Shown: piece after piece, positions 15,877 to 53,836 of the stretch
Position numbering within the stretch: position 1 is the first letter of the stretch
How the letters are laid out: each line of letters begins with the position of its first letter
Sequence record: NC_041871.1
Length of the DNA: 64,000 nt
Strand: one strand, 5' to 3'
DNA from: Escherichia phage Murica
Program-made: the position numbers and the translations under genes
Notes under the pieces: model-generated
What the model saw: only the letters and a program-made list of their open reading frames with translations
Databases searched by the model: none
What the model was told of the DNA's origin: nothing

Positions 15877-15905
15877 CCTATCACAGCGATAGGTAACTTT
15901 TGTGT
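15877..15905 (+). terminator. intrinsic terminator
   Basis: CCTATC-acagc-GATAGG followed by TAACTTTTGTGTT. Confidence 0.65.
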
Positions 15906-15933
15906 TGACTAATAGTATTAGATAATCTATAAT
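15905..15933 (+). promoter_or_regulatory. sigma70-type promoter TTGACT-17-TATAAT
   Basis: Near-perfect consensus; followed by leader hairpin GGCTCAC-N7-GTGAGCC (15937-15957) and GGAGA RBS. Confidence 0.7.
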
Positions 15934-15973
15934 AATGGCTCACTTTGTTGGTGAGCCAGAAATGGAGACAGAT

Positions 15974-16435
15974 ATGAGTAATGTTATGATTCCTAAAAAG
16001 ACATTTATTTCAGTTACTTTGGATTTCCTATCTACCGTTCCCGGGTTTAACGTTCGCACACGAAACGGTCTCCGAGCTGCACTCTTTGCCGTAGGGTTTG
16101 ATTTAAAAAGTATTGATGTTCTTCGTGGAAAAAACGTTCGATGCAAAAATAAGCCAACACATTATCGAAAGGCAGATGTATTTGCTGGTGTCATGCGTGC
16201 AGACTTTAGATACCCGCAAATGTATAACGGTGTAGATATTTTAGATGTGGATAAAGCACCTGGTGAGGCAATGCTTGTTCAAGATCTTCCGTATGATATT
16301 CCTGTAGAGGATCGTGTTAATGTAAGAAAGTATACAAAACAATCTGAAAAGGCTGAAGATATTCATATTGTTGATGAACCTTTCAATTTTGAAGATCTGC
16401 ATCGCCTGGAAAAATTATTCGGTATTGAAAGCTAA
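15974..16435 (+). CDS. hypothetical protein
   Basis: ORF-track start 15935 lies 2 nt after the -10; start moved to ATG 15974 after GGAGA. Confidence 0.45.
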   Translation: MSNVMIPKKTFISVTLDFLSTVPGFNVRTRNGLRAALFAVGFDLKSIDVLRGKNVRCKNKPTHYRKADVFAGVMRADFRYPQMYNGVDILDVDKAPGEAMLVQDLPYDIPVEDRVNVRKYTKQSEKAEDIHIVDEPFNFEDLHRLEKLFGIES

Positions 16436-41978: not shown

Positions 41979-42032
41979 AGTGTTTTCCTCTCTTCTGGTT
42001 GTTGTGTGGGCACCTTTGCCCCTTCAAGATAA

Positions 42033-42061
42033 ATGTTACCCCACCCCATGGCAGATGTCAA
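42033..42061 (-). promoter_or_regulatory. sigma70-type promoter TTGACA-17-TAACAT (minus strand)
   Basis: Upstream of gene 41706-41978; second candidate TTGACT-17-TATTCT at 42138-42166. Confidence 0.5.
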
Positions 42062-42196
42062 CGGTTTTTATAGTTCTTATATGACAGGCAGGCCTGGTGA
42101 TTGTCTCCCCCTGTTCCCAAGTGCCGCCCGTTTAATAAGAATAGCAAAAGGGGCCGAACAAGTCAACCCCAAAATCAGTACCAAAACACTTTTTAT

Positions 42197-42508
42197 TTAT
42201 ACGGTCCGGTCATTGGCCTTTGTCCAGGACCTGGCGATCCGTTTCCCAGTCACCTGGAACGGAGACTGCATTGTGTGTAATGAATCCAGCGTAAGGGAGG
42301 ACCGTTTACGGCGTATCTTCAGGATCGCCAATGTATTGTCCATCTCACGGCCAGGTCCTGGGCGGTATGGAGTGCCTCCAGCGTTAAGGTTGATGATCTC
42401 ATGTATTGAGATCCGGCGTTGTTTTGCTTCCGCATCTTTGAAGATAGCCAGCGGTGGCGCTATACGTTGCCGATACCAATCTAAAACGGTTGGCGTAATA
42501 GCGATCAT
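42197..42508 (-). CDS. hypothetical basic protein
   Basis: 103 aa; start overlaps upstream stop. Confidence 0.4.
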   Translation of the reverse strand: MIAITPTVLDWYRQRIAPPLAIFKDAEAKQRRISIHEIINLNAGGTPYRPGPGREMDNTLAILKIRRKRSSLTLDSLHTMQSPFQVTGKRIARSWTKANDRTV

Positions 42509-42696
42509 ATTTTACCCCCTATGTAGTCAGGTCGGTTTTTCTCTGTCATGCGCTTTAGCAATTCGTGCATGTTACTTATAGCTTGTAGTGTATCCTCTTC
42601 CAGGCTTGAATCAACATAATCAGGATCGTCTATGACCTTTCTATGATTATGATAACGCAGTACCGCCAATACCTTTCTAACTTGTTCAGTATTCAT
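42505..42696 (-). CDS. hypothetical protein
   Basis: 63-aa ORF. Confidence 0.35.
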   Translation of the reverse strand: MNTEQVRKVLAVLRYHNHRKVIDDPDYVDSSLEEDTLQAISNMHELLKRMTEKNRPDYIGGKI

Positions 42697-42712
42697 TTTA
42701 CATCTCCCTTAC

Positions 42713-43003
42713 TTATTGTTGGCGGTTTACGTAAGCTTTACCGTTTACCGTCATCGGCAAATCTTCCAGGTCTGGATCTTCCTTAAGGTCGCGAGCAAGT
42801 TCACCGCACCGGATACCCTCGAATCCGTAGTACTCTGTTGTACCGTCATTAAAAGTTTTAGTGGCAAGGCATAAGCGATAAGTAACCCCGATTCGATTGA
42901 CGGCATGAATATCCGTTAGATTAACCTCTTTTGCCAGCTCATTAGCCATTGCAGGCGCACTAAGTCCAACAACCAGGGCAACCACTGCGATCATCTTTTT
43001 CAT
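42713..43003 (-). CDS. secreted (periplasmic) small protein
   Basis: N-terminal signal peptide MKKMIAVVALVVGLSAPAMA with AxA cleavage site; two Cys in mature part. Confidence 0.5.
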   Translation of the reverse strand: MKKMIAVVALVVGLSAPAMANELAKEVNLTDIHAVNRIGVTYRLCLATKTFNDGTTEYYGFEGIRCGELARDLKEDPDLEDLPMTVNGKAYVNRQQ

Positions 43004-43094
43004 TGTGCCTATCCTCTTTCTGCTACGTTTAAGGCGGCGGTAACCGCCTGTTTATGATTTGTTGGTTAATTTTCGGGTATCGGTATAAATTAAA

Positions 43095-43310
43095 CTATGC
43101 GGTACGCTCAACTATAACAACGGTTTGGGGGATCTCCCCTTCCACCACTAGTAAGGCCTTTTTCTGCGTGATAGATATCTTTACCCGTTGCAGCGTGGCG
43201 GTGAAGTCTTTCATTTCGTCACGCGGTGTTTTAGTGCAGTACCAGATCTCAGGCTTGCCGATCTGTAAGTTGCGTAAAAATTCTGTTTTGCCCGTTTTGT
43301 TAGTGATCAT
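43095..43310 (-). CDS. hypothetical protein
   Basis: 71-aa ORF. Confidence 0.35.
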   Translation of the reverse strand: MITNKTGKTEFLRNLQIGKPEIWYCTKTPRDEMKDFTATLQRVKISITQKKALLVVEGEIPQTVVIVERTA

Positions 43311-43501
43311 TTGCCAACCTCACCCGATACCGTTGGAAGACAAGATCATATTAGACATGGTTGCAATCAGGCCAATACCCAGGGCAATAATCAAGATCGC
43401 TGCATCGATTAATTTCTGTTTCATGGTGTTTATTCTCTTCTGTTAGTAACCTTATTCATGGGGCCGCTACCACAGCCCCAGGGTAAGGCGGCTATGTGCT
43501 T

Positions 43502-43747
43502 TTAGTGTTTCATTCCAACCATCGCGGCACGGATCGCCGTAGTGCTGTACTTGAAGCCGTCCGGGGTCTTATCTTGTCCGGTTAGCTCCAGAAAAAGCAT
43601 CATATCCCGCGCCGCATCATTACGATTAGCATTAGCGTTAATAAAGCCTTGGGCCAACCGGTACAATGACTCATCGTTATTAATCCAAAGGCTTACATTC
43701 CAATGAGTTTTGTTTTTGTAACCGTTATAACCTTTATTGCTTTTCAT
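43502..43747 (-). CDS. hypothetical protein
   Basis: 81-aa ORF. Confidence 0.4.
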   Translation of the reverse strand: MKSNKGYNGYKNKTHWNVSLWINNDESLYRLAQGFINANANRNDAARDMMLFLELTGQDKTPDGFKYSTTAIRAAMVGMKH

Positions 43748-43839
43748 GGTGTTTACCTCTTCTTTGTTCCGGGGTGGCGGATCATTCTACCACCTTATGT
43801 ATTATGCTTTGTTAGATGGTTGTTTGTTGTCAAACTATT

Positions 43840-44019
43840 TTAACGATAATCATCGTACGCTTTATTAACCTGGCGAATATAACATTCAAAAGCTAGATCA
43901 ATAGATTCATATTCACGGATATACTCACCATAGGAAACCACATACATTTCTATAGCTTCCTCATATGCGAGGAGAATAGAATCTAAGCCTACGATCTCGG
44001 TCTTTGCAATAATAGCCAT
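43840..44019 (-). CDS. small acidic protein (59 aa)
   Basis: ATG 44017-44019 after GAGGATAAAAATC; downstream of promoter 44071-44098; below ORF-track cutoff. Confidence 0.35.
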   Translation of the reverse strand: MAIIAKTEIVGLDSILLAYEEAIEMYVVSYGEYIREYESIDLAFECYIRQVNKAYDDYR

Positions 44020-44070
44020 GATTTTTATCCTCTTTGTGGTTGGTGGGGCTTGTTGCTCCCTTTGATTTAT

Positions 44071-44098
44071 ATATTACAGTTTTATATGGTCATGTCAA
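44071..44098 (-). promoter_or_regulatory. sigma70-type promoter TTGACA-16-TAATAT (minus strand)
   Basis: Consensus -35; adjacent to A10T5 homopolymer tract 44107-44121. Confidence 0.5.
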
Positions 44099-44104
44099 CT
44101 ATTT

Positions 44105-44332
44105 TCAAAAAAAAAATTTTTCTGCTGTGATATTCTTCCCGGTAGGGTTCGCTACTTTCAAAATTTTATCATGCACTGGACGCCCAAAAGAATAAGCGCC
44201 GTACACAGTAAACCAATAATCGCCGTCAGGTTGTACTATTACCGCCGCATATGGTACGCCTTTTTCGTTTTTGCTGACAAAATAGATCACATTGCCATTA
44301 ATAGCCTCAGCGCGTTTAATTTGTTCCATCAT
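44105..44332 (-). CDS. hypothetical protein
   Basis: 75-aa ORF. Confidence 0.4.
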   Translation of the reverse strand: MMEQIKRAEAINGNVIYFVSKNEKGVPYAAVIVQPDGDYWFTVYGAYSFGRPVHDKILKVANPTGKNITAEKFFF

Positions 44333-44386
44333 GATGATTTACCTCTCTTTATTTTCATAATTGGGGCCTTTTCGGCCCCGCCAGGT

Positions 44387-44671
44387 TTATTTATTGATAG
44401 CGTGCAGCGGGAAAGCTACGCCAGGTTGATAAATAACCTTTACAACCTCATCAGGACAAAAGAAGTTGCAGAACTCACCGCAGTAGGCCTCATCCTCTTT
44501 CAACTCTTCATTAACATACTCAAAAAAGTAGTCGATGCTTGGATAATCCTGGCCGGGATTATAGTCAACCATCGTTAATAATAACTCTTGATCATTCCGT
44601 AGGATATGCATACCCGCTTTTAAGTATTTTGCTTCCATTTCTACTACATCGCCAGCGGTAACAATAGCCAT
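44387..44671 (-). CDS. hypothetical protein
   Basis: 94-aa acidic ORF. Confidence 0.4.
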   Translation of the reverse strand: MAIVTAGDVVEMEAKYLKAGMHILRNDQELLLTMVDYNPGQDYPSIDYFFEYVNEELKEDEAYCGEFCNFFCPDEVVKVIYQPGVAFPLHAINK

Positions 44672-44873
44672 GATTTTAACTCCTATCTATCTGGTCAATG
44701 ATTGGGGGCCTCCCCCCTCGACAACTCTTATTATCCATATTGTCGGGAATGATGCAAGTACTTCTTTAAAAATTTTTTAAGCGCCTTAGGGCCGTTGTAA
44801 CGTCAAAACAATAAAGGCTATGCGATTGCATAGCCTGCTAGTGTTTAGGTCGCTGTAGGCCCTGCCTGGGGCC

Positions 44874-45224
44874 TTATTTTGCATTCTTGCCTGTATTGCC
44901 GCCACGGTACCAGCGTTTGCGGTGAAAATGGTAATAATCCCCCTCGGCATTAAACATCAGATGATTTTCAATAACCAGCTTACGAAGGTGGGCCGGATCT
45001 TGTTCCATTCTTGCCAGATTCCGGCGGCTGTTACGTAAACGGATAAATTCCATATTCAGGCCGTTGATTGCAGCATGGATGTTAAAGTAACCACCTTTGA
45101 GACGTTCACGCATGGCGTTAAGCTCAACACAATATACAGATTTCTCACAAATCAAGGTATTAGCTAGGGCGCGGACCTGGGCAAGGGGGTTAAGCTCATT
45201 AAGGTAATATAATTTAACTTTCAT
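44874..45224 (-). CDS. hypothetical basic protein
   Basis: 116-aa ORF. Confidence 0.4.
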   Translation of the reverse strand: MKVKLYYLNELNPLAQVRALANTLICEKSVYCVELNAMRERLKGGYFNIHAAINGLNMEFIRLRNSRRNLARMEQDPAHLRKLVIENHLMFNAEGDYYHFHRKRWYRGGNTGKNAK

Positions 45225-45241
45225 AAAATCACCTGTTGAAA

Positions 45242-45550
45242 TTAGTTTGAGAAAACATCGTTCACAATAGCGATCACAATGCCGCTCACCTTGTCACGGT
45301 CAACAATGCACAAATCACCATAGATCATGTGGTAGTCTGGATGATCTTTCACAGAATAGTCAATAAGTGTTTTCTTGTCATCCAGCTTCGTAACTTCCAT
45401 TCTCATAACGATATGAGAATCATCAAAGGCATTATTCCGAAAAGTCATAGCCTGACCGCCAGGGCACCCAGTGATCTCCACTTCCACACCATCTACGATC
45501 TGACCATCAAAGAAATAAAGATTATTAGCCTGGATAAACATGTCTATCAC
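45242..45550 (-). CDS. hypothetical protein
   Basis: 102-aa ORF with AAGGAG RBS, downstream of 45-bp element copy 1. Confidence 0.45.
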   Translation of the reverse strand: MIDMFIQANNLYFFDGQIVDGVEVEITGCPGGQAMTFRNNAFDDSHIVMRMEVTKLDDKKTLIDYSVKDHPDYHMIYGDLCIVDRDKVSGIVIAIVNDVFSN

Positions 45551-45587: not shown

Positions 45588-45632
45588 TTTACTTTATTGA
45601 TGGCCCTGGAGTCAAGGCCATCTAAAAATAAA
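45588..45632 (-). promoter_or_regulatory. conserved 45-bp promoter/hairpin element, copy 1
   Basis: Minus strand TTATTTTTA-GATGGCC-ttgactccag-GGCCATC-AATAAAGTAAAT; TTGACT in the loop, 18-nt spacer, TAAATT. Confidence 0.55.
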
Positions 45633-45835: not shown

Positions 45836-45978
45836 TTTGTTTCTCCTTTCTGGTTTTTGTGGTGGTGGGGATTAGCTCCCCCCGTTGATTGTTATTATCC
45901 ACATTCCGGACCGGATTGCAACACCCCGGAAGAAAATTTTTTTTTTTTTTAAAGATAGGCCCCCATGATCGGGGGCCG

Positions 45979-46692: not shown

Positions 46693-46756
46693 TCTATGTA
46701 CCTCTTTTACAGTTCTGATTAACAATAAGGCGGCAAATATGCCGCCTGTTACCTGA

Positions 46757-47137
46757 TTAAAAATTATCGCCGTAAATCTTTCCGCTTTCTACCCATACCA
46801 CCACGCGAGGCATACTATCCCACACGTCTTGTTTTAGATTGAGCGCGTGCAATTCTTCGGTGGTGCTCATACCGGGCACGGGCTGATTGTATACTGCAAA
46901 ACGACCGCCTGCATAATCATAGGCCAGGGTTAAATCACACTGGATCATCTTTTTGATCATGGCATTAAGCATGGCGTTAGCCGCATATTGATCACGTTTT
47001 AAAGGCAACTCTTTGATTAGTTTGCGATAGTTTTCGATATGGTCGCACACTGTTTCACGTGGAAGATCTTTCATATCCTCGCGAAAGGTAACCAGGTTAA
47101 ACATAACGGTGTCAATGGCTTTAGTGGTGCTTTTCAT
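46757..47137 (-). CDS. hypothetical protein
   Basis: 126-aa ORF. Confidence 0.45.
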   Translation of the reverse strand: MKSTTKAIDTVMFNLVTFREDMKDLPRETVCDHIENYRKLIKELPLKRDQYAANAMLNAMIKKMIQCDLTLAYDYAGGRFAVYNQPVPGMSTTEELHALNLKQDVWDSMPRVVVWVESGKIYGDNF

Positions 47138-47225
47138 GATGTTTTCCTCTTTGTTTTGTGTGGGGCAAACGTCTTGCCCCTTGAGTTTTAATATAGCAGG
47201 TTTTTAGGTTATTGCAACACTTTAT

Positions 47226-47849
47226 TTATGAAAAAGTCATCTCGCCATATTCATCCACATCAAACCGCCAATCATTGGCCTCGATAAGGCCGATCAGGTT
47301 TTCGGTAGTAAATTGTTCAAGATAAGCTTGCTCCAGGTCTACGTAAACCTTGCGGGATAGCTCCCGTACCGTCTCGGTGATCAGCTCTTCCAGCTCTTCA
47401 ACTTTGTCCTCTTGCTTGGTGGTCAGGTCTAGCCAATTAGTATCGATGCACCCTCCTATTGTGTTTTCGTGGTGATAATGGCTAAACGGGATACGTTCAA
47501 CACTGGCTGATAGTTCGCCATCGTGCATTGTGCCGAACAAGTGACGAATTGATCGGAACTTGGTCAGGGCCTTTACTTTACGCAAGAATTTTTCTAAATC
47601 CACGTTTTCCGCACTGATTGACGCGCCGTCACCCTGGCACCAAAAGCCTGACCAATGTACTTCGGTATCTTCAAGGCCATACTCTGGAAAAACATATTCT
47701 TTATAGTATTCAATTACACTTTCTGCAAAAAAGTTATCCCCGCTGTGTTCTTCTCTTTCGCGTACCATTTCAATGGCTTTTTCTTTTTGTTCGTCGGTCA
47801 GCACGTCGAAAGATAAATTGTAACCTGTGGTAATGTTAACGGTGGTCAT
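47226..47849 (-). CDS. hypothetical acidic protein
   Basis: 207-aa ORF downstream of promoter 47908-47935 and a leader hairpin. Confidence 0.5.
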   Translation of the reverse strand: MTTVNITTGYNLSFDVLTDEQKEKAIEMVREREEHSGDNFFAESVIEYYKEYVFPEYGLEDTEVHWSGFWCQGDGASISAENVDLEKFLRKVKALTKFRSIRHLFGTMHDGELSASVERIPFSHYHHENTIGGCIDTNWLDLTTKQEDKVEELEELITETVRELSRKVYVDLEQAYLEQFTTENLIGLIEANDWRFDVDEYGEMTFS

Positions 47850-47877
47850 GATATTTTCTCCTGTTTTCTTTGTTAGT

Positions 47878-47896
47878 GGCGGGAAGTTTTCCCGCC
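47878..47896 (-). promoter_or_regulatory. conserved 5'-leader hairpin
   Basis: GGCGGGAA-N3-TTCCCGCC between the -10 and the RBS of gene 47226-47849; near-identical at 50390-50408. Confidence 0.5.
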
Positions 47897-47907
47897 TATG
47901 TTTTTTA

Positions 47908-47935
47908 ATTATACTTATTGAGATTTACTTGTCAA
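47908..47935 (-). promoter_or_regulatory. sigma70-type promoter TTGACA-16-TATAAT (minus strand)
   Basis: Consensus hexamers. Confidence 0.65.
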
Positions 47936-48185
47936 CACTATTTTTTAAATTATTGTGGCGCAAAATGTTTAAAATCTTCTCAACGTCATCAACACGGCGG
48001 CAATTTTTAAACGCTACCAATTGCCCCATGATTTTAATCACTGGGCGGCCTTGCCAGTGCCCCTGAAGAAAGCGCGCCTTGACTTTATCGGTGGAACTAT
48101 CACGCCACCAAATAGCCTTGTTGTTGCAGTAGTAAAAATTATTCAGGATAACATCAACTTTATCAAAATTTTTTAATTTACGCAT
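47925..48185 (-). CDS. hypothetical protein
   Basis: 86-aa ORF; stop lies within the downstream promoter. Confidence 0.4.
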   Translation of the reverse strand: MRKLKNFDKVDVILNNFYYCNNKAIWWRDSSTDKVKARFLQGHWQGRPVIKIMGQLVAFKNCRRVDDVEKILNILRHNNLKNSVDK

Positions 48186-48363
48186 GGCGTTTACTCCTTT
48201 CTCTCTTTGATGTGGTTAGTATAGCTAACCTGTTGACGATGTCGATGATATTTTTAACGCCACAAAACGGCCCTGGGCGATGTTTTCAGGTTAAAGGGGG
48301 CGATTGCATAGGTGGGGGCCTTTTTGGCACTTATAGGGCCAACCAGGGGCGCTATTCGTAGGA

Positions 48364-48395
48364 TAGAAATAAAAAGCCCCGCACAATGGCGGGGC
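48364..48395 (-). terminator. intrinsic terminator (minus strand)
   Basis: Minus strand GCCCCGC-N6-GCGGGGC followed by TTTTTATTTC, just after the stop of gene 48404-48601. Confidence 0.75.
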
Positions 48396-48403
48396 GTTGG
48401 TTG

Positions 48404-48601
48404 TTATTTGTCTTTATGGCGGTATCGTTCTGCCTGTCGTTCACGTTCCAAAAGCAGGCCCGGTAATTTGCGATCATAGTGATTCCTCCAGATCTTCCCG
48501 AACCTTTTCGGCTTATTCAGTTTATTGTTACGCTGGCGGCGTTCCGGCAGCTCTTCGGAATCGTGGGGGCGCTTTACAATTTTTTCGAAATTAATTTTCA
48601 T
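48404..48601 (-). CDS. hypothetical basic protein
   Basis: 65-aa Arg/Lys-rich ORF. Confidence 0.4.
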   Translation of the reverse strand: MKINFEKIVKRPHDSEELPERRQRNNKLNKPKRFGKIWRNHYDRKLPGLLLERERQAERYRHKDK

Positions 48602-48945
48602 AAATTTCCCCCTTTACTGATTTCAATATTTGCCTGAATCGCCCGGATACGCCGTTTTATAACCTCCTGATCCTTGCAATCATATCCCCAAAAGTCTACG
48701 ATCTTTGCGCCTCCGGCCTTTAGGCGGTATAGTGTTTCTTGCATCTTGTAAGCTGGGATCGGTCGCGGTGTTACCTGGTCGCCTCTCTCATCTTTGTACT
48801 TGATTATGTAGTCTTCGTTGTCGTTGAATACCCAAAATGGGTATTCTGTGAGCGCGTTGCTATCTTTTTCGTTTTTAGATTGGATCTTGTTTACAATTAA
48901 AGCCGTAGCAATAGCGCCAATAATAAAACTAGCCCCGCTGATCAT
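48598..48945 (-). CDS. hypothetical protein with N-terminal TM segment
   Basis: ISGASFIIGAIATALIV N-terminus. Confidence 0.45.
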   Translation of the reverse strand: MISGASFIIGAIATALIVNKIQSKNEKDSNALTEYPFWVFNDNEDYIIKYKDERGDQVTPRPIPAYKMQETLYRLKAGGAKIVDFWGYDCKDQEVIKRRIRAIQANIEISKGGNL

Positions 48946-49019
48946 GTACTTTCTCCTTTCATGGTGTTAATAAATTATCTTTATAGATGGCCCTGCAGCC
49001 AGGACCACCGAAAAAATAA

Positions 49020-49265
49020 CTATTTCACAATGCCTACAAAACAGATCCCGCCTTCACCTATATAAGCAATATCGGTCACTTTGTAGTTGGTCAAGATCTG
49101 TTTATTCAGATCATTAATAAAATCGGTCATTGCGTTGGTGTAGTTGTCTTCCGTATCTAAGGCATAATCCCAGGTGTAAACCTTTTTACGTCCGAAGCCT
49201 TTTACCATGATACGGGCGCTTTTGGTGTTGGTAGGGGCATAATATTTGGTGATTAGTGCTGCCAT
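49020..49265 (-). CDS. hypothetical protein
   Basis: 81-aa ORF with TAGGAG RBS, downstream of element copy 2. Confidence 0.45.
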   Translation of the reverse strand: MAALITKYYAPTNTKSARIMVKGFGRKKVYTWDYALDTEDNYTNAMTDFINDLNKQILTNYKVTDIAYIGEGGICFVGIVK

Positions 49266-49306
49266 GGTTTTAACTCCTATGCATTAGTTCAGTGTTAACA
49301 GTATAA

Positions 49307-49352
49307 AGTTTACTTTATTGATGGCCCTGGAGTCAAGGCCATCTAAAAATAA
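49307..49352 (-). promoter_or_regulatory. conserved 45-bp promoter/hairpin element, copy 2
   Basis: Identical core to copies 1 and 3; TTGACT-18-TAAACT on the minus strand. Confidence 0.55.
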
Positions 49353-49354
49353 TC

Positions 49355-49696
49355 TTACTCGTTTTCTTCCAGCTCCGCAAGCTCTTCTTTTGCTTCTTCC
49401 AACTCTGTCTGCAATTCCTGGTATTCTTCATCGTCCTCAATATCCAGGCTGTCGATGTAGTCGCTAAATCCGCAGCGGTAAGCGATAGGATCTAGCTCCT
49501 TGAGGATACGCGACGGAAGAAAAGAAATGTTTCCGATCATAATTTCGCCGTAGATCTCGTCCAACCATTCATCATAGTTTTCGTCGTACTTGTCCTCGTC
49601 GATTTCAAAGTTATCGATCTTGTCCTCAAGGTCTGCGATCTGTTTTTTCAGTGCGGCAACCTGAATAGCTTTTTCTGCGGCGGTCATAGTAGTCAT
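49355..49696 (-). CDS. acidic coiled-coil protein
   Basis: 113 aa, very acidic; AAAAGGAGAAAAA RBS. Confidence 0.45.
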   Translation of the reverse strand: MTTMTAAEKAIQVAALKKQIADLEDKIDNFEIDEDKYDENYDEWLDEIYGEIMIGNISFLPSRILKELDPIAYRCGFSDYIDSLDIEDDEEYQELQTELEEAKEELAELEENE

Positions 49697-49747
49697 GGTG
49701 TTTTTCTCCTTTTGTGTGTTCTGGGAAGTTTTCCCGTTTATGTGTTT

Positions 49748-49775
49748 AGTATACTGATCTAAGTTAGCTTGTCAA
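49748..49775 (-). promoter_or_regulatory. sigma70-type promoter TTGACA-16-TATACT (minus strand)
   Basis: Consensus hexamers upstream of gene 49355-49696; leader hairpin variant CTGGGAAGTTTTCCCG at 49721-49736. Confidence 0.6.
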
Positions 49776-49895
49776 TTAAAAGTTTAAGAAAAATTTTGCG
49801 ACACTGTTGGCGCTACCCATCAACATTTGCGCCAGGATGTAACCAATGATGCAAACGATAATAGTTACCTTTGTGTGCTGGCGTGTAGTACTCAT
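49776..49895 (-). CDS. small hydrophobic peptide (39 aa)
   Basis: ATG 49893-49895 after AAAGGGGGC; TM-like segment; stop abuts the -35 of the next promoter; below ORF-track cutoff. Confidence 0.35.
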   Translation of the reverse strand: MSTTRQHTKVTIIVCIIGYILAQMLMGSANSVAKFFLNF

Positions 49896-49927
49896 CTTCA
49901 AGCCCCCTTTTTAGCTTAACTGGGATT

Positions 49928-49973
49928 AGTTTACTTTATTGATGGCCCTGGAGTCAAGGCCATCTAAAAATAA
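49928..49973 (-). promoter_or_regulatory. conserved 45-bp promoter/hairpin element, copy 3
   Basis: Same core as copies 1 and 2; immediately after the stop of gene 49976-50371. Confidence 0.55.
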
Positions 49974-49975
49974 AC

Positions 49976-50371
49976 TTAGTAAGTTTTCAGTACTTTCCCG
50001 TCCAGTCTGTCAAGCTGGATCTCGATAGCTGCAGAAAACCTATTATAAACCACATCGCCCATGGAGTCCAGCCAATCTATGACGTTATACACCTGCTCTT
50101 TATTCTTGCAAGTCCGGATCCGTTTCATTACGTAAGACGGATCAATATTAGTGCTCTCGTTGTTGTGGTCATGCGCCTGGCCTGCTGCATTAGTTATAGA
50201 TTTTACAACCACCTGAAAGGGCTTTAAGGTGCCTTTTGCGTTCATCTCACGCGCTTTTGCGGCGCGGTTGTTATATGTTACACAACGGCGGCAAATGTTG
50301 ACCAAATGCATATCAATAATTTTTTCATCGTTTGCCAGTTCGTTCATGATGCGGCGTACGTTCTTATTCAT
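49976..50371 (-). CDS. hypothetical protein
   Basis: 131-aa ORF with promoter and leader hairpin upstream. Confidence 0.45.
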   Translation of the reverse strand: MNKNVRRIMNELANDEKIIDMHLVNICRRCVTYNNRAAKAREMNAKGTLKPFQVVVKSITNAAGQAHDHNNESTNIDPSYVMKRIRTCKNKEQVYNVIDWLDSMGDVVYNRFSAAIEIQLDRLDGKVLKTY

Positions 50372-50389
50372 GATCTTTTTCCTTTGTGT

Positions 50390-50408
50390 TGGCGGGAAAC
50401 ATTCCCGC
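50390..50408 (-). promoter_or_regulatory. conserved 5'-leader hairpin
   Basis: GGCGGGAA-aca-TTCCCGCC between promoter and RBS of gene 49976-50371. Confidence 0.5.
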
Positions 50409-50418
50409 CTTTTGTGCC

Positions 50419-50446
50419 TAGTTTACTTGAATTTTGCAGCGTGTCA
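50419..50446 (-). promoter_or_regulatory. sigma70-type promoter TTGACA-16-TAAACT (minus strand)
   Basis: Consensus -35. Confidence 0.55.
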
Positions 50447-50453
50447 ATGATTT

Positions 50454-51114: not shown

Positions 51115-51458
51115 GATTTTTTATCCTCTTTGTTAATTAGTGCGGTGTTGTTCACCTTGCGATAATAAGAATAACAAGAACTGCCCGAGCTGTCAACCAT
51201 TATGTAAAATTATTTTTTTGGGTAGAATTCTCCAGCCGCCACCCCTGCCAGGTTTGCAAGCTTTCACTCTCCCACCTGGTCAGTTAGGTCCTGCTAGGGC
51301 TGGCCCCGCCAGGTTGCAGCAGTTGACGCACTATGTTAGAAAAATTTTTTGAAAAGTGTTGACAACGGCCCCACCAGGTGGCACAATATACCTATCGAAA
51401 GGACGGCAGGCACCGGTGACGGGGGAGACAACCACTGGGGATGGGCGCTGCATAAAAT

Positions 51459-53521: not shown

Positions 53522-53584
53522 AATACATCACTCTCTGTTAGTTTATGCATATATTATACACTGCAGTTTTCAGATGTCAATCTT

Positions 53585-53836
53585 TTACAGGTTACTCCAG
53601 TATAATCGGCATTTACATTTTGGGCAATGAGGTTCTTTTATGTAATAACCATCAGTCTTTGGAACACTTTTTGGTGCAGTTTTAAGATTGTACCTGGTAA
53701 AACATCGGAAGCAGGTTACCTCTCCCACCTGTTGATCGTTGATCCACTCACCAGAGTAAAGCTCTTTCTTGTTTCTCATAATTCTCTCCCAAATCCTCTG
53801 CAATCTTATACCAAAATCTCCAGCCAGAAAGCACAC
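53585..53836 (-). CDS. zinc-ribbon protein
   Basis: CFRC...CPKCKC cysteine pairs. Confidence 0.4.
   Translation of the reverse strand: MCFLAGDFGIRLQRIWERIMRNKKELYSGEWINDQQVGEVTCFRCFTRYNLKTAPKSVPKTDGYYIKEPHCPKCKCRLYWSNL

Follow-up and report, generated by a model that had tools for sequence, protein, structure and literature searches.

Leader hairpins in PeSL-like early gene cassettes of Escherichia phage Murica and related phages: structural conservation and a possible role as 5'-terminal stem-loops

Promoter-early stem-loop (PeSL) cassettes are known from the T4-type phages RB49/phi1, PST and nt-1 (Arbiol et al. 2010, PMC2839356; Comeau et al. 2014, PMC4122927). Stem-loops that stabilise a transcript from its 5' end have been described for the ompA 5' untranslated region, papA, hairpins appended to bla, and the T4 gene 32 leader (PMC3997798; cited in PMC8948821). 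The accepted view is that 5' hairpins stabilise mRNA because RppH and the RNase E 5' sensor require single-stranded 5' ends (PMC3997798). Here we describe GC-rich hairpins in the leaders of small early genes within 64,000 nucleotides (nt) of Escherichia phage Murica (NC_041871.1), a stretch that is referred to in full as the window. The window belongs to the rV5 group (genus Vequintavirus, E. coli myoviruses) and shares 94–98% identity with 121 GenBank phage records of that group. A catalogue of promoter-leader-ATG units reveals that at least nine early promoters in the window bear a GC hairpin at the same position past the -10 hexamer. The leader hairpin is real, non-random, conserved and structurally constrained, and it represents a variant of known promoter-stem-loop cassettes rather than a new category, with PeSL-like architecture and a probable ompA-like or T4 gene 32-like action. 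Such leader hairpins were previously undescribed for these phages and are sometimes annotated as terminators. The rV5 genome paper predicted promoters P185, P192 and P194, and the hairpins are absent from its 20 terminators (PMC3606486). Full-text searches of the literature on Vequintavirinae promoters, stem-loops and transcriptomes returned no description of the hairpins and no mapped start sites, and a search of Rfam identified no family, with a sole hit of 34 bits against a gathering score of 94.4.

A first-pass annotation of the window had noted a GC palindrome reused in the 5' leaders of three unrelated genes. All three hairpins are real, yet they are only three of the nine or more that the window contains. 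Reuse of the palindrome is firmly established: GGCGGGAA-N3-TTCCCGCC has exactly two copies in the 64-kb window, at 47878-47896 and 50391-50409, compared with a chance expectation of 0.08 copies, and two or more copies arose in 0/100 dinucleotide-preserving shuffles. The first copy lies where it had been reported, the second had been placed one base low, and the weaker variant, GGGAAGTTTTCCC, has a 5-bp core at 49723-49735 with one extra T.G pair on the plus strand only. The three cassettes, with promoters predicted as consensus matches, are made up as follows.

47908-47935, minus strand: cassette A promoter, TTGACA-16-TATAAT, 12/12 consensus, equal to predicted rV5 P185, with the upstream stop codon directly after the -35.
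47878-47896, minus strand: cassette A hairpin, GGCGGGAA-aac-TTCCCGCC, 11 nt past the -10, with the Shine-Dalgarno (SD) sequence unpaired in the fold.
47847-47862, minus strand: cassette A SD (AGGAG) and ATG of a 207-amino-acid ORFan (gene 47226-47849).
49748-49775, minus strand: cassette B promoter, TTGACA-16-TATACT, 11/12 consensus, equal to predicted rV5 P192, directly after the stop codon of a 41-amino-acid open reading frame.
49723-49735, minus strand: cassette B weak hairpin, GGGAA-aac-TTCCC, 5 bp, 12 nt past the -10.
49694-49711, minus strand: cassette B SD (AAGGAG) and ATG of a 113-amino-acid ORFan (gene 49355-49696).
50420-50447, minus strand: cassette C promoter, TTGACA-16-TAAACT, 10/12 consensus, equal to predicted rV5 P194, with the upstream stop codon 9 nt before the -35.
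50391-50409, minus strand: cassette C hairpin, GGCGGGAA-tgt-TTCCCGCC, 10 nt past the -10.
50369-50384, minus strand: cassette C SD (AAGGA) and ATG of a 131-amino-acid ORFan (gene 49976-50371).

Every gene around these cassettes is on the minus strand. Each hairpin begins 10–12 nt past the -10 of a sigma70-type promoter match and lies upstream of the SD and ATG, which follow 19–28 nt past the stem; an upstream stop codon lies 0–9 nt from the -35 or just after it. The claim that the hairpins stand between a consensus -10 and the ribosome-binding sites of different minus-strand genes is thereby borne out, as are those of similar flanks, with the transcribed sequence ahead of the stem rich in A/C and the spacer behind it rich in CA, and of unrelated genes: no mutual similarity is detectable among the three ORFan products, and no Pfam family was found above threshold. 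The leaders of cassettes A and C each fold at -14.6 kcal/mol (z = -5.2 for A and -4.3 for C); the cassette B hairpin alone reaches -5.5 kcal/mol (z = -1.8), which is not significant by folding energy. The cassette A stem is intact in 15/18 sequences (the window and 17 relatives), with one G.U change and two pair-breaking transversions in the remainder. The 5-bp core of cassette B is retained in 18/19 sequences, and in a divergent IMG relative 4 bp enclose a loop of 5 nt. Three alleles occur at site C: two share the 8-bp stem and differ in whether the loop reads TGT or, flipped, ACA, and the third pairs over 7 bp around a loop of 4 nt. The site C loop (50399-50401) is reverse-complemented with respect to L058 and L118 (IMG contig 3300010279_000001) with the stem unchanged, which is the signature of a small hairpin inversion.

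The whole unit of stop codon, promoter, stem-loop, SD and ATG has the published PeSL layout, a correspondence that the first-pass annotation had not seen. As in PeSLs, the stop codon lies in an AT-rich stretch and is followed by a near-consensus sigma70 promoter, a G-rich/C-rich stem-loop, an SD and an ATG. Also as in PeSLs, many copies occur in an ORFan-rich, indel-rich early region, here on the minus strand and among small hypothetical genes. Unlike PeSLs, these cassettes belong to Vequintavirinae and Stephanstirmvirinae and not to T4-like phages. PeSL stem-loops have been described upstream of, within, or just before the start site, whereas the stem here begins 8–15 nt past the -10 in 70 non-redundant cassettes (mode 10–12 nt, and 9–12 nt with extended RNAfold stems), which places it inside the predicted transcript and outside the five described PeSL subclasses. 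Two further differences from PeSLs are that the gene strand carries no U-rich tail, which makes terminator activity unlikely, and that no indel border occurs at the three reported cassettes among close relatives.

Conservation was measured as the mean pairwise difference per alignment column, with 18–19 sequences per site. The -35 hexamer does not differ (0.000), and it is followed by the stem (0.029), the -10 hexamer (0.063), the promoter spacer (0.102), the post-hairpin leader (0.104), the initial transcribed stretch (0.128) and the loop (0.211). The stem is thus nearly as constant as the promoter hexamers and the loop varies freely, and the hairpin is conserved in related phages. A covariance model made from 36 non-redundant hairpins aligned 103 matches, 76 of them distinct. 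Among the distinct sequences, standard pairs make up 88.4% of cells compared with 78.3% in shuffles; both sides of a pair have changed in 46 cells compared with 12 in shuffles, a value that was reached in 0/500 shuffles. Compensatory changes occur at 5/8 pairs (e.g., G-C to C-G or A-U), and slid registers of the alignment all score below the true register. Stems at the same position also differ within one genome (GGCGGGAA, GGGGCAAG, GGGGA, GGGGG, GGGCA and GGTG), with loops of 3–5 nt. Varied stems, loops of 3–5 nt and flipped loops therefore favour the hairpin as such and disfavour a sequence-specific site with fixed spacing. A palindromic operator would have a conserved half-site and fixed spacing; here, half-sites differ within a genome and their spacing varies over 3–5 nt. 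In stabilising 5'-terminal stem-loops it is structure rather than sequence that counts, and the leader hairpins likewise show covarying stems, unconstrained loops and more than one stem sequence at a given position.

Sigma70 promoters preferentially start transcription at a purine 7–8 nt after the -10 with a pyrimidine before it. In predicted leaders the hairpin is isolated, and the remainder is CA-rich, G-poor and unpaired, including the SD. Emory et al. in 1992 reportedly found that a stabilising hairpin must lie no more than 2–4 nt from the 5' end and that its sequence is unimportant. The leader hairpins may be optional 5'-terminal stem-loops of PeSL-like early cassettes that restrict access by RppH and RNase E while the SD stays free, the best-supported reading, to which we give an even chance. 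Each cassette begins with an upstream stop codon and a sigma70-type promoter, continues with some 10 nt of A/C-rich initial transcribed sequence, the GC stem-loop and an unstructured CA-rich spacer, and ends with the SD and ATG. Such cassettes populate early regions rich in ORFans in both rV5-like (Vequintavirinae) and phi92-like (Stephanstirmvirinae) phages. The stem-loop would lie inside the transcribed leader, probably 3–5 nt from the mRNA 5' end, where it could hinder host RppH and the 5' sensor of RNase E from reaching early transcripts that host RNA polymerase makes, and could also prevent other sequence from pairing with the ribosome-binding site. The stem-loop would then determine how long individual early mRNAs last and how much they yield, and recurrence of one stem sequence would reflect common descent and patch exchange among cassettes instead of sequence-specific recognition. 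The resemblance to ompA-type leaders lies in a stable hairpin near the predicted mRNA 5' end, the sequence of which matters little, followed by an accessible ribosome-binding site. The arrangement here differs from ompA-type leaders in being modular, genome-wide and repeated on many unrelated early genes, and in that the distance to the 5' end is predicted.

Several points weigh against this reading. The unpaired 5' overhang, with a median of 4 nt from rule-based sigma70 start sites, is an estimate from predicted starts that ranges over 0–8 nt, and its median lies at the edge of the 2–4 nt limit given above. The alignment used for covariation had been fitted to the model, its sequences are related, and some opposite-strand duplicates are among them. 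About half of rV5-like early promoters have no hairpin; their leaders resemble the same framework minus a module of about 19 nt. Broken stems occur in the natural isolates C9, IMG2051223002 and Gotham, and any effect of the hairpin can therefore be modulatory at most. Folding energy does not separate sense from antisense (p = 0.24), and internal G.U and A.C pairs number 6 and 5, a symmetric count that carries no strand signal. Neither energy nor wobble pairs indicate a strand, and we therefore infer, rather than observe, that the functional form is RNA and not DNA. Dependence on RppH has been reported for only about 10% of E. coli mRNAs (PMC3997798). Position and flanks are informative as to strand, and in favour of the reading, the covariance model scores the gene strand well above the opposite one (33 compared with 15.5 bits at site C), a gap to which the flanks and the asymmetric loop both contribute. 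If the hairpins do cap early mRNAs, they would form a natural modular set of about 10–20 promoter-leader units per genome, with and without a hairpin and with graded stem strengths, and would offer a ready system for studying phage evasion of 5'-end-dependent decay by RppH and RNase E and the tuning of early gene dosage.

A different role for the stem-loop would be that of a PeSL-type attenuator or terminator that halts or dampens upstream read-through, with each ORFan driven mainly by its own promoter. The layout is the same as that of PeSLs, one of which has a stem-loop that cut lacZ expression as strongly as rrnB T1 (PMC2839356), and the genes, each with a promoter of its own, stand close together in one orientation. 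Terminators are labelled on the gene strand at both full hairpins in the GenBank record of Alma and at the 50391 hairpin (site C) in that of EdH4. The hairpins resemble intrinsic terminators in their GC-rich stems of 5–9 bp and loops of 3–5 nt, and the identical palindrome is a terminator stem in unrelated phages. They differ from intrinsic terminators in that they lie between a promoter and the SD of its own gene and lack a U-tract on the transcribed strand. The 8 nt past the stem contain a mean of 0.99 T on the gene strand, with two or fewer T in 66/70 tails; published rV5 terminators average 6.6 T per 8 nt, with a minimum of 5 (from the list in PMC3606486). The hairpins are therefore not canonical intrinsic terminators for their own genes. 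An efficient terminator at this position would also abort transcripts from its own promoter, 10 nt upstream, and fixed spacing from the -10 would be needless for such a role. The region also contains genuine terminators on the minus strand, a separate population with T-tails (44815-44836, 45958-45977, 46728-46747 and 48376-48395), and the cassettes at 45921 and 44757 keep their leader hairpins despite lying 36–57 nt downstream of a canonical terminator. Attenuation is thus unlikely, and the gene-strand terminator labels in GenBank, which annotation pipelines assign to such hairpins, are probably wrong. The stem-loops could instead terminate transcription on the opposite (plus) strand, where the complement of the A-rich initial transcribed region is T-rich, and block antisense transcription into the early genes. 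The hairpins at 47878, 50391 and 47162 are terminator-like on that strand, with 5–6 T in 8 nt. Antisense tails across lineages have, however, a mean of only 3.9 T per 8 nt, 5 T or more are reached in only 22/70 cassettes, and tails of the ESCO5 type read CTATGTGGTAA. No strong plus-strand promoter that feeds the region was found in the window, and the fixed distance from the minus-strand -10 would be left unexplained; this role appears scarcely probable.

The first-pass annotation had offered two interpretations, of which common post-transcriptional control is plausible and a shared protein-binding site is unsupported in view of varying stems and loops and compensatory changes. Under the latter idea, a phage or host factor that co-regulates early genes (e.g., in shut-off) would recognise the hairpin, as an RNA tag or as a DNA operator centred near +14. 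Recurrence of the GGCGGGAA/TTCCCGCC stem across genera and two subfamilies, and lineage restriction of the promoter-plus-hairpin composite, would fit such a factor, and the position is comparable to that of lac operator O1, which is centred near +11. Different stems at the same position within one genome, loops that are free in sequence, flipped between orthologs and variable enough that half-site spacing is not fixed, stems that change by compensatory substitution, and use of the same palindrome as an ordinary terminator in many unrelated phage contigs all argue against it, and we consider a shared recognition site very unlikely. A predicted RNA hairpin shortly after an early promoter is also reminiscent of two antitermination RNAs, lambda nut boxB and HK022 put. 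A conserved loop is essential to boxB, and a pair of larger stem-loops to put; the loops here, unlike those elements, vary freely. We hold it equally improbable that the hairpin is a lineage-specific early-transcript tag, in which a dedicated phage or host factor would read the GGCGGGAA-type stem at the 5' end of many early mRNAs and switch off or stabilise the early class at a set time; if that were true, it would define a post-transcriptional regulon common to Vequintavirinae and Stephanstirmvirinae. The hairpins might also have no direct role in expression and persist as harmless passengers in cassettes that recombination spreads and homogenises. The cassettes do cross-match as dispersed repeats with 80–97% identity over 30–100 nt, phage C2 has the hairpin of one cassette inside another (see below), the region is indel-rich, and stems are broken in some natural isolates. 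Stems that are about four times less variable than the adjacent leader, compensatory changes that maintain pairing across two subfamilies, and a constrained hairpin position speak against such hitchhiking, which we regard as having little likelihood.

Leader hairpins have a restricted distribution. A hairpin follows most early promoters in ESCO5 and Klebsiella phage KP13-26 (Stephanstirmvirinae), in Serratia phage Kashira (Vequintavirinae) and in 4MG/GAP31-like phages, and the GGCGGGAA/TTCCCGCC stem itself is often reused in those leaders. GC hairpins are enriched 6–18 nt past the -10 in rV5-like cassettes (16/62 compared with 0.24 expected from dinucleotide shuffles), and likewise in ESCO5 (7/11 compared with 0.20) and KP13-26 (5/13 compared with 0.25). 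The detector used for this test missed site C, where an ATG in the hairpin loop was read as a start codon, so that its count for the window is an undercount. The bare palindrome was rejected as a lineage marker, since 115 IMG/VR contigs contain it and most copies are ordinary terminators of unrelated phages in which an A-run, the stem and a T-run follow each other. The promoter-plus-hairpin composite is lineage-specific: four IMG/VR contigs, of rV5-like or phi92-like size, contain it, and 596 Gb of prokaryotic genomes yielded two records only, both phi92-like phage DNA. These two records (L160, JAPMLR010000051.1, from a Lysobacteraceae assembly, and L161, JAEZZU010000352.1, from a Proteobacteria metagenome-assembled genome) are phi92/ESCO5-like phage DNA, the latter 98% identical to ESCO5. 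Protein-anchored retrieval of orthologs from IMG/VR gave two rV5-like contigs only, and further orthologs were taken from GenBank phage records. Seventeen GenBank MG0656xx records named 'Campylobacter phage' (e.g., L139 and L140), some of them marked UNVERIFIED, are 94–98% identical to this Vequintavirus and are probably mislabelled or contaminant genomes. Several small early genes within rV5 106640-124745 (L136) are annotated as similar to hypothetical proteins of RB49, the T4-type phage in which PeSL cassettes were defined. These annotations hint at ORFan exchange between rV5-like and T4-type lineages. With these phages, the idea of PeSL-type cassettes reaches beyond T4-like phages and bears on ORFan shuffling in large virulent coliphages used for therapy or biocontrol. 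The cassettes are also compact, strong expression units with possible use in synthetic biology.

The remaining cassettes with a leader hairpin in the window are the following.

47162-47217, minus strand: cassette D, promoter TTGCAA-16-TATATT (47190-47217), hairpin GGGGCAAG-acg-TTTGCCCC (47162-47180) 9 nt past the -10, gene 46757-47137; the fold has z = -3.9.
45867-45921, minus strand: cassette H, promoter TTGCAA-16-GATAAT, hairpin GGGGA-gctaa-TCCCC (45867-45881), just downstream of the canonical terminator at 45958-45977.
44704-44757, minus strand: cassette G, promoter TTGCAT-16-GATAAT, hairpin GGGGG-gagg-CCCCC (44704-44717), downstream of the terminator at 44815-44836.
44045-44098, minus strand: cassette F, promoter TTGACA-16-TAATAT, imperfect hairpin GGGAGC-aacaa-GCCCC (44045-44060); the hairpin is a perfect GGGGC/GCCCC in rV5 and has lost its 5' arm in Gotham.
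42008-42061, minus strand: cassette E, promoter TTGACA-17-TAACAT, hairpin GGGCA-aagg-TGCCC (42008-42021).
51144-51196, minus strand: cassette I, promoter TTGACA-17-TATTCT, short hairpin GGTG-aacaa-CACC (51144-51156).

In phage C2 (L140, position ~9069), cassette E at the 42061 site retains its own flanks and carries the exact 19-nt hairpin of cassette D, GGGGCAAGACGTTTGCCCC, which suggests short-patch exchange between paralogous cassettes. In PeSL phages, recombination among the cassettes is associated with genes being gained, lost or replaced and with mini-circles. At least eight indels distinguish six close relatives in the early region here. Segments of 200–360 nt are present or absent among close relatives at 53586-53806, ~51254, 44884-45249, 43444-43736 and 42149-42507; the indel border at 53586 directly adjoins a consensus promoter at 53580, and C9 lacks 42149-44514. 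No indel border falls within 45.2–51.2 kb among the six relatives, and indel borders were accordingly rejected as evidence of cassette-mediated shuffling. An apparent 1.4-kb insertion within 47–51 kb in LL12 and other relatives was likewise discarded; it is a second BLAST piece joined to the match and not an insertion.

A second repeated unit of 51 nt, which starts at the stop codon of the upstream gene, occurs at 49307-49357, 49928-49978 and 48973-49023. Its hairpin, GATGGCC-N10-GGCCATC, is exact at 45599-45622, 49320-49343 and 49941-49964 and degenerate at 48986-49009. On the gene strand the loop contains a -35-like TTGACT, with TAAACT or TAAATT 18 nt later, and a hairpin that encloses the -35 is a described PeSL subclass. 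Elsewhere in the window, on the plus strand at 15905-15975, a promoter (TTGACT-17-TATAAT) is followed 2 nt past the -10 by the hairpin TGGCTCAC-N7-GTGAGCCA, which overlaps the predicted start site and has a geometry unlike that of the leader hairpins.

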